Part shown: piece after piece, positions 21,300 through 26,130 of the stretch
How the letters are laid out: each line of letters starts with the position of its first letter
Numbering within the stretch: the stretch's first letter is position 1
Assembly (NCBI GenBank): GCA_019057815.1
Contig: JAHLWR010000025.1
Span: 1 to 49,081 of the forward strand
Reading direction: 5' to 3'
From: Candidatus Heimdallarchaeota archaeon
GTDB taxonomy: Archaea; Asgardarchaeota; Heimdallarchaeia; Heimdallarchaeales; Heimdallarchaeaceae
DNA length: 49,081 bases
Translations under genes and position numbers: made by a program
Notes under the pieces: model-generated
What the model was told of the DNA's origin: nothing
The model's input: the letters and a program-made list of their open reading frames with translations, nothing else
Databases searched by the model: none

Positions 21300-21384
21300 T
21301 GGTGCGGGGAGGGAGATTCGAACTCCCGAACCACTAAGGACTGGATCCTAAGTCCAGCGCCTTTGACCGCTCGGCAATCCCCGC
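21300..21384 (-). tRNA. tRNA-Leu(TAG)
   Basis: 85 nt, long variable arm, CTGGA-CTTAGGA-TCCAG, CCA. Confidence 0.96.
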
Positions 21385-21439: not shown

Positions 21440-21570
21440 TTTATCCTTGGGTGTTAGAGAACGCACGTTATGAAACTTGGTTAAAATTGCCAGAGGCTTT
21501 TTAACCGTCGTTTGAAGGATTCCCCTCACGTGCATTGAGGGGAGGGAAGGAGCGTGAAGATAAAGGACTA
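21440..21570 (-). ncRNA. putative omega/reRNA scaffold overlapping the tnpB 3' end
   Basis: Hairpin UCCCCUCA/UGAGGGGA (21521-21543) whose loop AUGCACG can pair with CGUGCGU (21461-21467); second hairpin GGUUAAAA/UUUUAACC (21479-21506). Confidence 0.55.
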
Positions 21571-23459
21571 CCTGGTTTTGAAGAGATGTTGAGAACAGCA
21601 TTAAAGTGAGTATTGACTTTTAGCCCACAGTTCTTACAATAAGCATAATCGTAATTACCTACCTTGCGATCGAGTACTCCTCCACAAACGTTATGGAGTA
21701 AACTGGTGCGGAAGGCATTAACTTGCTCTAGGAGAACATCATAACCTAGTTCTGAAGAAGCTAGCCAGACAGCTTTGTCGTAGATGAAAGAGTTATCGGG
21801 CATGGTGTAGATAGCTTTAGCTAGTGCACCTTTGGTTCCTGTAGGGTCAACATTCAATTCCTCGATCTTCAAGACGCGACTGTGGTGTTTAACCATAACT
21901 GAGGCTATAAAGAAAGGTAAAAGACGAAGAATCTCACGCATAATCCTACTCCTGCGGGTATAGACTTTATTCAATTCCCCAAGGAGTTTACAACAACCTC
22001 GAGAATCGCGGTTTTTACGCTTCTTAGCTAATCCTCTATTAAGTTCTTTGAGAACTTTATCAGTTAAGAGGTTATAGCGTTCTGACAGTTTGAGCAAATC
22101 TGGGGGAAGATCAATGGGGGTGTTAAATGTCACCATGAACTGTCCTAAGCGGTTGATGTCTACACCCAAAGTAGGGATATTACCTGAGGGGATAGTAGAA
22201 ATATAGTGGTGTAGGAGTGTAGTTGAGAGGAAACATTCATGTTCTCCTTCTAAAACTACATCTACACGAGGTTTGTAACTGGGAGCTTCACCACTGCTAA
22301 CTTGTAAGATTTTGATAATTGCGCCATTACGCAGATATTCCAAGACTTTGGGAGGGAAGAGCATATGTGCTTTGACTTTCTTTTTTCCTCGTTGAGGAAA
22401 ACCTAACTCTGTCCATCCTTGCTTTCTAACTTTTGCAGTCAATACTTTAGCATTACCTTCGCGGGTAATAACATACTCATTTTTCATTAACAATTTTATT
22501 GGTAGTTTTCCTTTTTTCTTTCTTTTAAATGGTTGAGAAACAACCTTCTCTGGTAGGGTAGAAAGAATTAACTGAGGGACACTCTCCATTAGATGGTCAA
22601 AGAGTGCGAAAACTACTATCAACCTTACAGCTGAAAAAAGCTTTCGGTTTTTCTTACCTATAGATTCGGTTATCTGCTGAGCGAGTTTTTTGAGACTTTT
22701 CCAACGAGATTTTTGAGGAATGTTAATCCACGAAGTGACAAAAGATGCTACTTGCTGTTTATCTTGAACTAATAATTGCAATTTATTTATGAAGGACTGC
22801 TGGTTAGTGGAGAGGTTGGTAATTGACGAAAACTCGTGAATCTTATGTTTATACGCGTCTTCTACGGCTAACACAACTTCTTCATGTGTTATTGTTGGTA
22901 ATATATGATTAAATTTTATCTTGGGGTTTTGGTACTTTTTCGCATATTTTCTGTTCCAGTAGGAGTCTGTTTGTAACCTTGTGCTAGTTAGAAGATTAAT
23001 AACGAACCTTCTTCCCACTTTCCAATATTTCTGGAAACTGTATTCAGTATAAGGTGAGCGTCCGAATATAATCCATTCTAGTAACTGTTGAGGGTTTTTC
23101 TGCCAGAAGTTAAATATTCCTTGTATTTTCTTCTCTTTGTCCACTTTTCCTTTAATAGCTATGTGTAACCAGTGGAAAGCGCTTTCAGCTATATTCGGAT
23201 TTTTACCTACTTCTTTACCCAATTTTCTTGTAAAGAATTTCTCTTTAGGGTTGGAACGATAGAGTTCCAAAGCTTTTGCAACTGTTGAGGGAGTTAGGAG
23301 CATTTTTTGCTCTTTTTCAAGTCTTTTAATTCGCTGGTTGATCTCTACTCTTTTGTTCTTACTCAAGTGTTCAAACGCTAACTGGTAACTTCTCATCACC
23401 TTCGTATGAGGGAGAGAAGAGTGTATTTTTGTTGTTGACTGTGCTTGAGTAGACATCAT
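21501..23459 (-). CDS. tnpB: large TnpB/Cas12-like RNA-guided RuvC protein (652 aa)
   Basis: N-terminal WED-like strand VMRSYQLAF, RuvC-I LGVDIN, RuvC-II KIEELNV, AFRTS, zinc finger HxxC...CxxC, RuvC-III NTHFNAVLNI. Confidence 0.8.
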   Translation of the reverse strand: MMSTQAQSTTKIHSSLPHTKVMRSYQLAFEHLSKNKRVEINQRIKRLEKEQKMLLTPSTVAKALELYRSNPKEKFFTRKLGKEVGKNPNIAESAFHWLHIAIKGKVDKEKKIQGIFNFWQKNPQQLLEWIIFGRSPYTEYSFQKYWKVGRRFVINLLTSTRLQTDSYWNRKYAKKYQNPKIKFNHILPTITHEEVVLAVEDAYKHKIHEFSSITNLSTNQQSFINKLQLLVQDKQQVASFVTSWINIPQKSRWKSLKKLAQQITESIGKKNRKLFSAVRLIVVFALFDHLMESVPQLILSTLPEKVVSQPFKRKKKGKLPIKLLMKNEYVITREGNAKVLTAKVRKQGWTELGFPQRGKKKVKAHMLFPPKVLEYLRNGAIIKILQVSSGEAPSYKPRVDVVLEGEHECFLSTTLLHHYISTIPSGNIPTLGVDINRLGQFMVTFNTPIDLPPDLLKLSERYNLLTDKVLKELNRGLAKKRKNRDSRGCCKLLGELNKVYTRRSRIMREILRLLPFFIASVMVKHHSRVLKIEELNVDPTGTKGALAKAIYTMPDNSFIYDKAVWLASSELGYDVLLEQVNAFRTSLLHNVCGGVLDRKVGNYDYAYCKNCGLKVNTHFNAVLNISSKPGSPLSSRSFPPLNAREGNPSNDG

Positions 23460-23526
23460 TCACTCAGTAATGTTATGTTTAAATTAATATATAAACTACA
23501 TAAAAAACAGCTAGTTTCCTTCTTTG

Positions 23527-23856
23527 TTATTTTCCTCTCTATTGTCTATGTAATCTCCCTACAAATGAAGTGAATAAAGCTATCATGTCTTCCACCAATT
23601 TCTCCTCAGTTGATTGGTTTGATAGCTGATAAGCATTCTTTTTGATTGTCAAGTGTTACTATCATAAACCCACCATGAAGACTTTTCCATTATAGTTAGT
23701 GGGTCACACTACGGAGCTAGCTAGGCTCCCTGTTTCATTGATAGTTTACTGAGGGAAAACTACTTGGTAGTTGCGAAACAGGTAAGTGACGAAGATCACA
23801 CTATCTCTATCTCTAAACAGGACTACAGCTTCTATTGATAATCTGTTTAGTTGATA
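23527..23856 (-). pseudogene. tnpA: remnant of IS607-type TnpA serine recombinase
   Basis: 23527-23616 translates QSTEEKLVEDMIALFTSFVGRLHRQ*RGK*, the IS607 TnpA C-terminal helix (ELVEDL...SF.GRL); upstream fragments LNRL..EAV...IFVTY and HG..IVTL lie in broken frames. Confidence 0.7.
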
Positions 23857-24033: not shown

Positions 24034-26130
24034 TTATGATTCAAGGAACTGCTTAGCTTCGTGAATAATTTCTTTTTTCCGTTCATCTGATTCATAAGAG
24101 AAACTTTCTGATTTACTTAACCACTCCCTTATGAATTTTTTTGATGGAACTTTCTTACTTTTTACAGCTCCCTCTAATATTGCAGTAGGCACATTTAGCT
24201 CGAGATTATCAGGTAGTTTTTCTTTATTCTTCCAAACCTCTAGAAAGTTGTAAATAGCTTTTTCCCATTGTTTGGTCTGTAAGAATAATACACCTTTCAA
24301 ATAAAGAAGAAGTGCATTAGTTGGGTCTCTTTGTAAACCAGTATCACAAACTTCTATAGCTTTTTCAAAGTTATAATTTTGTATGAACGTGAAGATAATT
24401 TGAGTAACATTTTCTGTTTTTTCTGGTTTAATTTTTGATGCTAGTTCATATTCTCTAATAGCTTCATCCTTTTTTGATAGTTTCATATATACATTTCCAA
24501 GAGAATAATGTGATTCAAAATCTTCAGGATTTATCAATAAGGCAGTCTCAAGCATTTTCTCTGCTATAGTCCATTGTTCTTGAGCTAAGTAAATAAGTCC
24601 AAGTTCTCGATAAGCTAGGTCATATCCAGATGCTTTCTTAATTAATTTTCCTAAATATGAACGAGCATCTATTTTTTCAGAATAACTAATAGCTTTTTTG
24701 TAAATATTTATAGCTTCTTCTATCCTATCCTGCTTTTTGTATATTATACCTAATGAAACGTTAATTAGAGGAAATTCAATACCATGCTTTATTGCTTTTA
24801 AAAGTGCTTTTTCAGCTTCTTCTTCTTGATTATTTGCCAAATAAGATAATGCAATACGAACATATACTCCTTGATGTCTCTTGTTTAATTTGATACATTG
24901 AGAAGCGTAATTAATCGATTTCTCCCATCGTTCTAAATCGAAATAAGATGTACTAAGATGATAATATGCTTGATGATTCTTTGGTTCAATATGAATTATT
25001 CTTTCAAATGCTTGAATTGAGACCAAAAGTAATTCTTCTGTATTTTTACTTTTAATTGCTTGATATTGAGCATTAAAACCAATTTTCAGTAGAGTATCTG
25101 TATTTTCATTAAAGACCAGAATTATCTCTCTAAAAATGTCGCTCACATCTTTTTCTGGTACAATTTCTACAATTTTCTCAATATAAGCTTCTTCAATAAA
25201 TATTTGCTTTATGTTCCAATCTACAAAGAATTCATTTTTATATAAATTTAATAACCATATTTCCCACTCCCAGTCTTCACCTTTTAATTTTCTATATTCA
25301 CAAACCTTCTTAATTTCTGAGAGATCGAAATTCTGTTTTCCTACATAAAGACCACAACAGTATAATCTCTTTATTGATTGTAGTATTATTTGTTCCTTTA
25401 CATCAATTTCTTCTTTATACCTTCTATCCATTTCTACGAAACTAAGTAAAAGAGAACCCACTGTACCATCAAAATTCTGGTTTGCTTGAATCCATTTAAC
25501 ACCAAAGTGTTTCGCGATCCCCAATCCTTCCTCTTTAGATATTCGTTGTATTTCAATTTTATTATTCTCAAAGAGCTCCTCTAATCCAAAATTGAACTCT
25601 TTTTTGAATTTGTTATTTGCTCTTGAATATTCTATTCTAGATCTACAAGCAAACAAAAGAATACAGTCTTGCTTTTGGATTTCTCTAATAACTAAATGGA
25701 AATTTATTCTTGCAACAAATTTATGTAAATCGTCAATTATAATTAGCTTTGTTCTCCAAAATTTAAGCAATCTTGGAAATCTTACATTTGATTCATAAAC
25801 ATCAACATTTTTCACTATTGTTACAGCGTATTTTTTTTCTACTCTTCTTATTGCTTCATAGATGTTCCTTGTTTTTCCACTTAGAGGTTTTCCAATTATT
25901 ATAGTATTTTCCTTGTTTTCCAAAGATTCTACTAGATTCTTCATCTCTTCAGTTTCATAGTAATATTCATGAAACTTGTTAATCTCTAAATGTTTTGGTT
26001 TAATTTTAATAGGTTTTTTCCAAATTACGGTACAAAATTTGGGAATTTTCAAGCTAAGTAAATCAAAACCAATAATACCCAAAATATCTGCTAGCACACC
26101 AATTATATTTAGCATTAGCAAATTCCACAT
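24034..26130 (-). CDS. N-terminal TM, P-loop (STAND-like) NTPase and C-terminal TPR array protein
   Basis: Hydrophobic N-terminus, Walker A GKPLSGKT, Walker B LIIIDD, sensor-like LLFACR, roughly eight TPR-like repeats. Confidence 0.75.
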   Translation of the reverse strand: MWNLLMLNIIGVLADILGIIGFDLLSLKIPKFCTVIWKKPIKIKPKHLEINKFHEYYYETEEMKNLVESLENKENTIIIGKPLSGKTRNIYEAIRRVEKKYAVTIVKNVDVYESNVRFPRLLKFWRTKLIIIDDLHKFVARINFHLVIREIQKQDCILLFACRSRIEYSRANNKFKKEFNFGLEELFENNKIEIQRISKEEGLGIAKHFGVKWIQANQNFDGTVGSLLLSFVEMDRRYKEEIDVKEQIILQSIKRLYCCGLYVGKQNFDLSEIKKVCEYRKLKGEDWEWEIWLLNLYKNEFFVDWNIKQIFIEEAYIEKIVEIVPEKDVSDIFREIILVFNENTDTLLKIGFNAQYQAIKSKNTEELLLVSIQAFERIIHIEPKNHQAYYHLSTSYFDLERWEKSINYASQCIKLNKRHQGVYVRIALSYLANNQEEEAEKALLKAIKHGIEFPLINVSLGIIYKKQDRIEEAINIYKKAISYSEKIDARSYLGKLIKKASGYDLAYRELGLIYLAQEQWTIAEKMLETALLINPEDFESHYSLGNVYMKLSKKDEAIREYELASKIKPEKTENVTQIIFTFIQNYNFEKAIEVCDTGLQRDPTNALLLYLKGVLFLQTKQWEKAIYNFLEVWKNKEKLPDNLELNVPTAILEGAVKSKKVPSKKFIREWLSKSESFSYESDERKKEIIHEAKQFLES

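Follow-up and report, generated by a model that had tools for sequence, protein, structure and literature searches.

Introduction

TnpB proteins that carry histidine in place of the aspartate of the third RuvC motif (RuvC-III) have already been catalogued. Altae-Tran et al. (2023, PNAS; PMC10691335) counted RIIIr-4 among five major TnpB clades; it has His for the RuvC-III Asp, lacks the C4 finger and shows an association with MazE/RHH. They also listed archaea-only rearranged branches, e.g., the serine-recombinase-linked Ser-6, as well as RIIIr-6. In the same study, clades with a conserved RuvC-III Asp-to-His change were interpreted as active. Fanzors carry a relocated RuvC-II Glu (PMC10530073). 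The present study concerns a 652-amino-acid (aa) open reading frame (ORF) in a stretch of 49,081 nucleotides from a Candidatus Heimdallarchaeota archaeon (contig JAHLWR010000025.1, positions 1 to 49,081; hereafter the window). Our analysis assigned this ORF, as tnpB, to an insertion sequence (IS) of the IS607 family. By analogy with characterised TnpBs its product would most likely, at a probability of roughly 0.6, be an active RNA-guided endonuclease with a D434-E533-H618 catalytic site.

Protein fold and catalytic residues

The translated ORF (P0001) consists of a WED strand (residues 21-29), REC-like helices (approximately 34-306), a further WED part (321-405) and a split RuvC domain with the TNB zinc knuckle (430-627). 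Pfam yielded only a sub-threshold match to a Cas12f1-like TNB domain (E 2e-4; 21.9 bits vs. a cut-off of 26.3), and NCBIfam gave no match for the protein. A profile built from 33 family members with 41-92% identity to the query (alignment A1) was searched against PDB sequences and matched Cas12f and TnpB chains, with E-values from 2.7e-6 at best to 1e-3. The family motif V-N-T-H-x-N-A-A was thereby aligned to V-N-A-D-x-N-A-A of Cas12f and TnpB, and H618 therefore occupies the RuvC-III Asp position. In an AlphaFold2 model computed from A1 (mean predicted local distance difference test, pLDDT, of 84), H618 starts the last RuvC helix (617-627), where canonical enzymes have Asp, while the tail (640-652) is disordered. 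The top structural matches of the model (Foldseek, VIA-align) were solely Cas12f, TnpB and other Cas12 chains, with Z scores of 13.6 for AsCas12f (8dzj), 12.6 for ISFba1 TnpB (8iaz) and 11.6 for ISDra2 TnpB (8h1j). Approximately 350 residues were aligned per match, spanning model residues 20-632, and the surplus that remained unaligned to the known structures is the helical block 34-306 between WED strand 21-29 and sheet 321-405. Model and profile matches agree on the WED-REC-split RuvC-TNB fold of TnpB. In place of the D-E-D catalytic triad of TnpB, the protein presents D434 and E533 with H618 at the third position.

A preliminary description of the stretch, made from its letters, had reported most of these features. 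The intact RuvC-I Asp and RuvC-II Glu (D434 and E533) and the HxxC/CxxC zinc finger (H589/C592 and C608/C611) were borne out in the translated ORF, the His at the RuvC-III Asp position by the profile alignment to solved Cas12f/TnpB chains, and the extra helical block after the first WED strand of the 652-aa protein by helices 34-306 of the model. Structure prediction had been proposed there as a check, and since a RuvC fold is predicted, the objection that none might be found fails. Repeat searches around the gene also agreed with the reported absence of a CRISPR array: no CRISPR-like repeats were detected at 19-27 kb of the window, and the only tandem arrays at 15-30 kb are two short ones.

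The size of the protein and its enlarged REC resemble those of small Cas12s and Fanzors, and Cas12f is among its best structural matches. That the gene encodes a Cas12-type CRISPR effector or a Fanzor-like protein instead of a transposon TnpB is nevertheless extremely improbable, as no CRISPR array is found adjacent to it, it belongs inside IS607 ends beside tnpA, and its RuvC-II is canonical and its RuvC-III changed, whereas Fanzors relocate the RuvC-II Glu (PMC10530073).

Conservation of the histidine and distribution of the family

Residues D434, E533 and H618 and the zinc knuckle residues H589, C592, C608 and C611 are invariant in A1, and so are D604 and E495. A word-indexed search returned 131 relatives, nearly all of 620-690 aa, of which the named ones are all from Heimdallarchaeota/Heimdallarchaeaceae, plus one from Thorarchaeota. 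An exhaustive HMMER scan of 1.84 billion representatives produced just 149 proteins at E<=1e-3, and the family is therefore far from ordinary TnpBs. The RuvC-III motif was readable in 142 matches: 139 have His, one has Asp and two are spurious regular-expression matches. The C-termini of distant full-length matches, read manually, show N-T-H-x-N-A-A or near variants, with a few Gln. Because it is invariant in A1 and occurs in 139/142 readable motifs, the His at RuvC-III is, judging from the aligned sequences, a fixed trait of the family and no private decay. The preliminary description had asked whether the His is conserved in homologs; they carry His, not Asp.

The named distant relatives are Heimdall-, Hod-, Odin-, Thor- and Helarchaeal proteins. 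No eukaryotic or viral relative was found among the 149 representative matches with sources checked, and every named relative is from Asgard archaea, in contrast to the eukaryotic or viral hosts of Fanzors. Among the genomes searched, the family is confined to the Heimdall group and related Asgard archaea.

Some of the distant relatives are very long proteins with a His-type RuvC/TNB module at their end (P0178, 1669 aa, Hodarchaeales; P0184, 1784 aa, Odinarchaeota; also P0162 and P0158). Weak MazE/AbrB-like matches lie approximately 650-700 residues into such long Asgard proteins, and Pro-rich tails occur in some of them. These proteins may represent fusions or gene calls joined in error. In addition, third-position conservation among 56 family members rises to 0.65-0.79 at codons ~241-330 (window ~22470-22740), compared with ~0.55 elsewhere. 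This segment overlaps in part a Lys-rich stretch; candidate causes are biased codon usage and a nucleic-acid signal inside the gene.

The IS607 element and its ends

A set of 79 further loci from GTDB species genomes was used for comparison. In approximately 18 of them, a tnpA ORF of 170-184 aa ends ~90 nt upstream of tnpB, while most family copies are solo, i.e., without tnpA. Two tnpA copies of the sister metagenome-assembled genome were inspected (L011:2041-2592 and L012:4360-4911), one with an internal stop and one intact. The product of the latter (P0275) matches NF033518 with 155 bits (cut-off 110) and combines MerR helix-turn-helix (HTH) and Resolvase domains, which is the MerR-HTH plus serine-recombinase make-up of an IS607 TnpA; the window keeps TnpA aa 142-170 only. 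The full element consists of left end, serine-recombinase tnpA, tnpB and right end over ~2.74 kb, and a complete example, on contig C27 of the same genome, spans L003:761-3499.

The left-end consensus, shared by full and solo copies, reads A-C-Y-G-T, ~5 nt, ACTGA, ~3 nt and GTGAAAACTTAYCCAATCTTRCCA, and is located upstream of tnpA or, in solo copies, fused near the tnpB promoter. At the other terminus, the right-end 20-mer CCAAGTTTCATAACGTG(C/T)(G/A)T recurs in 46 loci, with unrelated flanks beyond it, even though the proteins of these loci share no more than 57-63% identity with the query. Both termini have Y-R-T/GT in common, which may represent the crossover dinucleotide of the serine recombinase. 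Left and right ends are common to full, solo and mini copies (the last are described below), as expected of a TnpB carried by an IS. Furthermore, 19/21 genomes of the same taxonomic family have from 1 to 6 or more matches each, many at contig ends. Contexts vary among the family loci, and no conserved neighbour or partner gene was found in them.

Two other candidates for the transposition partner or left end of the window gene were rejected. The edge of homology at ~23630 was considered as a left end with an IS605-type hairpin (a small inverted repeat); this stretch proved to be C-terminal IS607 tnpA coding sequence. The two Y1 tnpA genes of the genome belong to ordinary IS605 elements with Asp-type TnpBs. 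These elements (G000:C8:9736-13104 and C4:62155-65523; L005 and L006) coexist with the His-type family in the genome. Both encode a 140-aa Y1 TnpA and a TnpB of 421-423 aa with a strong Pfam match, and these TnpBs keep E-R-D-V-N-A-S and the C4 finger.

A predicted structured 3' RNA with a putative guide position

RNAalifold was applied to the last 180 nt of the 46 loci. The predicted structure contains a first hairpin with arms CCCCTCA/TGAGGGG and a second, longer one whose stem is closed by AAAC/GTTT. A pseudoknot was tested between the loop of the first (CGCACG) and the terminal CGTGCG, the last 6-7 nt of the element. The two variable pseudoknot positions covary (CG in 39 loci, UA in 5 and UG in one; GC in 33, AU in 7 and GU in 5). 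Double-sided changes affect 10 pairs and 24 cells, compared with 3.1 and 6.3 in shuffled alignments, and these values were reached by 0/500 shuffles. Over the whole structure, 96.6% of the cells are paired, a proportion that falls to 18-43% when the partners are slid by 1-3 columns. Divergent subclades retain the hairpin through compensatory changes, e.g., CTCCTC/GAGGAG. The G-U pairs of the scaffold are workable on the sense strand only, and RNA is therefore favoured over a DNA structure. RNAalifold also proposed a long-range helix from the N-A-A codons to the 3' end, which was dropped, since the pseudoknot between loop and 3' end covaries far better.

Within the same conserved block (window 21515-21560; equally in L013-L068), the position of the stop codon drifts. 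The protein tail ends in ...PSxHV* or ...PSTHVRGxx*, as a 1-nt indel in the hairpin arm makes or removes a TAG. Since the stop drifts while the nucleotides stay, the constraint acts on the nucleotides and not on the protein, and it is the RNA that determines how the protein ends. The sharp conservation boundary in the 46 loci, together with the covariation, corresponds to the structured 3' RNA of TnpBs. The predicted scaffold has the layout of a TnpB omega RNA or right-end element RNA (reRNA): it overlaps the gene end, its pseudoknot lies beside the guide, and the putative guide begins at the element boundary.

In the window, the guide would run from 21460 downward into the 76-nt spacer before a tRNA gene. 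This gene, tRNA-Leu(TAG) at 21300-21384 (-), has the same orientation as the element, and a read-through transcript with the guide would enter its upstream region. It was also the only Rfam hit over 20.5-24.5 kb of the window. When the 11 guide-position flanks of the genome were searched for second targets in it, only chance-level matches were obtained, none of them convincing from guide position 1. One flank (G000:C20:12188-12211) matches C46:84487-84504 at 18/18 positions (E 5e-4), starting at flank position 6; the match may be due to chance or be target-like.

The window copy and selection on tnpB

The genome (G000; 3.74 Mb, 95% complete) harbours four intact tnpB copies: that of the window, those on C12 and C27 (88 and 84% aa identity) and a divergent one on C22 (43%). 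DNA homology of the window, C12 and C27 copies stops abruptly 41 nt past the stop codon, and these 41 nt are 100% identical in the three, while their ORFs show differences of 10-15%. Each tnpB frame is nevertheless open. Pairwise ratios of nonsynonymous to synonymous divergence (dN/dS) among five copies are 0.135-0.19 at a synonymous divergence (dS) of 0.24-0.50, and 0.135-0.17 in every pair that involves the window copy. The tnpB copies are thus under purifying selection.

The surroundings of the window gene (Table 1) are in a different state. A short remnant of tnpA is joined to a fragment of a mini-element, an arrangement absent from every other tnpB copy fetched, and the window as a whole contains no recognisable left end. 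The locus is therefore a patchwork of two truncated elements. A left-end-like string at 23695-23714 was discarded, as it does not align with true left ends and sits inside the mini-element fragment. Adjoining the decayed element on its upstream side, the gene of a 698-aa P-loop/TPR protein (24034-26130, -) occupies very AT-rich DNA.

Table 1. Features of the tnpB locus in the window and complete mini-elements elsewhere in the genome.
Feature	Position	Strand	Remarks
tnpB ORF	21501-23459	-	652 aa (P0001); translation
RuvC-I Asp434	22158-22160	-	codon GAC, motif LGVDIN; family-invariant
RuvC-II Glu533	21861-21863	-	codon GAG, motif KIEEL, canonical strand-end position; family-invariant
His618 at the RuvC-III Asp position	21606-21608	-	codon CAC, motif NTHFNAVLNI; family-invariant
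TNB zinc knuckle	21627-21695	-	H589-x2-C592 ... C608-x2-C611 (H-C-C-C, not C4)
Right end and guide-RNA (omega/reRNA) scaffold, predicted	21461-21555	-	overlap with the final ~18 codons of tnpB and its stop; element ends at 21461
Putative guide position	21441-21460	-	first 20 nt of flank past the right end; unique in the genome
tnpB leader	23460-23544	-	A/T-rich TATA-like box TTTATATAT ~30 nt before the ATG; from sequence conservation among copies only
IS607 tnpA remnant	23545-23631	-	aa 142-170 of ~184 (29 codons); 79% identical to the C27 copy
Mini-element fragment	23676-23809	-	positions 145-280 of 380, 89% identity; joined upstream of the tnpA remnant
Complete mini-elements (loci L094-L100)	G000:C8:42394-42773; C1:35384-35757; C20:11814-12187; C27:57832-58204; C12:160785-161136

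The window copy could be a functionless relic that has merely not yet been disabled, with nothing selected at the locus. A patchwork of tnpA stub and mini-element fragment lacking a left end, in a genome where transposition is not recent, would suit such a view, which we consider distinctly unlikely: the 1,959-nt frame has stayed open at a dS of 0.24-0.50 from its paralogs with a dN/dS of 0.135-0.17, the 41 nt past the stop are identical in three copies, and 4/4 genomic copies are intact. The preliminary description was right that the ORF stayed intact while its transposase decayed. Its suggestion that this hints at retention for a host function found no support, given that loss of tnpA beside an intact tnpB is common among TnpB elements, that most family copies are solo and that the guide-like flank in the window matches no further target in the genome.

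Mini-elements

A search of the genome for the right-end 20-mer gave 11 occurrences (0 in a reversed control), of which 8 are not beside a tnpB. Five of the loci concerned are complete 375-bp mini-elements resembling miniature inverted-repeat transposable elements (MITEs), which are accompanied by several partial copies; they are 86-92% alike. Besides the left end and the common scaffold, which here carries one extra small hairpin, each has a TATA-like box similar to the promoter of tnpB and a module of ~135 nt that has no counterpart in tnpB. The predicted transcript of ~240 nt folds below shuffled controls (z = -4.0), and Rfam found nothing credible in the mini-elements. The mini-elements show that transposition of the family took place in this lineage.

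The mini-elements could serve as further scaffold-plus-flank units that surviving TnpBs load in trans. An extension of this idea, which we regard as rather unlikely, is that the D-E-H TnpB is active with changed metal or cleavage behaviour and that the mini-elements are stand-alone guide-RNA genes, each with a TATA-like promoter, a structured 5' module of ~135 nt, the common scaffold and a private guide, so that a few tnpB genes would serve a dispersed multi-guide set in Asgard archaea. If true, such a set would represent a naturally occurring stage between transposon nucleases with a single guide and systems that are array-based or host-regulatory.

Probable activity of the D-E-H site

According to the reading that we favour, that of an active RNA-guided endonuclease, the flank adjoining the transposon end would be transcribed as guide together with the scaffold. 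The protein-RNA complex would then recognise a target-adjacent motif (TAM) and the guide-matching empty site and cut it, as characterised TnpBs do, and the cutting of empty sites would help the element to be retained and to home. His618, in place of the RuvC-III Asp, would still support metal-dependent cleavage, possibly with a changed preference for metal or substrate. The copy in the window is an immobilised relic that keeps an intact tnpB and RNA module under purifying selection, and it could serve mini-elements and sister copies in trans.

Nucleases of the RNase H fold are functional with His in the last catalytic position, as in the DEDH tetrad of Argonaute and with the His of Cas9 and Thermus RuvC. 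An active D-E-H site is favoured because such nucleases work, because D, E and His are fixed over very deep divergence, because the family proliferated as an IS607 element, and because its RNA module is more conserved than its protein. Altae-Tran et al. (2023; PMC10691335) inferred the same for their His clade, which adds to the case.

Several observations weigh against activity. Asp is a stronger Mg2+ ligand than His, and the papers searched contain no biochemical data on any His-type TnpB. The only cognate tnpA of the genome (C27, L003:860-1411) has a TGA at codon 11, where sister copies have Trp. In addition, the tnpB copies and mini-elements of the genome are 8-15% diverged, which shows that no recent transposition took place in the lineage, and there is thus no direct sign of homing in use. 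Finally, the TAM can be defined only as far as the conserved A-C-Y-G-T junction.

The same facts lend themselves to another explanation, in which the D-E-H site is dead or only nicks and the protein is an RNA-guided DNA binder, like TldR, Cas12m and Cas12k, with a host role such as repression guided by the flank or the mini-elements. The canonical RuvC-III Asp is missing, the only cognate tnpA is broken, tnpB is intact and under purifying selection where tnpA and the left end have decayed, and eight extra stand-alone scaffold copies exist, each with its own flank. We regard this explanation as rather unlikely, since D434 and E533 are invariant and the His is fixed, with no drift of the site, whereas known dead TnpBs lose several catalytic motifs (Altae-Tran et al., 2023; PMC10691335). 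Moreover, the family behaves as a mobile IS607 in variable contexts with no conserved neighbour, and 0/11 guide-position flanks have a convincing second target from guide position 1. The marks of TldRs are absent as well: motifs are invariant, contexts vary, and no promoter-matching guide was found among the flanks in the genome. We found no support for a host-domesticated repressor, and the possibility of a dead site, raised in the preliminary description, is disfavoured by the invariant D434, E533 and H618 of a multi-copy IS607 with conserved ends and RNA scaffold.

TnpBs with a His-type RuvC-III make up a large, computationally catalogued clade, on which the papers searched report no bench tests. 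The Asgard family offers a well-defined test case, with an intact protein, mapped ends, a scaffold supported by covariation and a clear guide boundary, and its natural partners are at hand, namely the broken tnpA and mini-elements of this genome and the intact tnpA of the sister genome. The outcome of a cleavage assay with the D-E-H enzyme would settle whether "rearranged" means active, and a mid-sized editor that differs in its metal or collateral properties could be derived from such a TnpB. The restriction to Asgard archaea and the IS607 ancestry also bear on RNA-guided nucleases near the origin of eukaryotes; no link to Fanzors was found.

Comparison with known systems

In the literature on Asgard or Heimdall TnpBs and on links between Fanzors and Asgard archaea, we found no account of the family or of its 650-aa protein size, RNA or mini-elements. 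With Fanzor1/2 the family shares IS607 ancestry (Fanzor2), an enlarged protein and, through its Asgard hosts, proximity to eukaryotes. It differs in that the Fanzor rearrangement lies in RuvC-II and that of the Asgard family in RuvC-III, with E533 at the canonical strand end. TldRs and other nuclease-dead TnpBs are alike in being TnpB-derived and array-free, with a non-canonical catalytic residue and tnpA lost at the locus; in contrast to them, the Asgard family strictly keeps two of the three catalytic residues, has a fixed His as the third, and occurs in multiple copies with transposon ends and without a conserved partner gene.

Canonical IS605/IS607 TnpBs (ISDra2, ISFba1) and Cas12f have the same WED-REC-split RuvC-TNB fold (Z 11.6-13.6), and the canonical TnpBs are similarly IS-borne with tnpA and have a 3' RNA that overlaps the gene end, with a pseudoknot by the guide. 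The Asgard TnpB departs from them in its RuvC-III His, in the His that serves as first zinc ligand and in a REC larger by ~250 aa, and its sequence is so dissimilar that the Pfam TNB match stays below the cut-off.

The family also resembles the Asp-to-His clades. The preliminary description had proposed a distinct archaeal OMEGA (obligate mobile element-guided activity) clade with a rewired active site. An Asgard-restricted clade with a His RuvC-III and an enlarged REC was indeed recovered; its His-type RuvC-III is an active site of a kind already on record, since RIIIr-4 has been described (PMC10691335). Compared by description, the family shares with RIIIr-4, Ser-6 and RIIIr-6 the conserved His for the RuvC-III Asp, archaeal members and, in some cases, linkage to a serine recombinase, and the weak MazE/AbrB matches in Hod- and Odinarchaeal relatives of 1.3-1.8 kaa echo the MazE/RHH link of RIIIr-4. 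A C4 finger is absent from the Asgard family, yet an invariant H-C-C-C set, probably a zinc site, remains. The family differs in its protein of ~650 aa with a 270-aa REC-like block, and its named hosts are Asgard archaea, whereas the MazE-linked, non-mobile set is euryarchaeal/crenarchaeal. As far as published descriptions can place it, the Asgard family fits the RIIIr-4 type and is probably a further member of the catalogued Asp-to-His kind.

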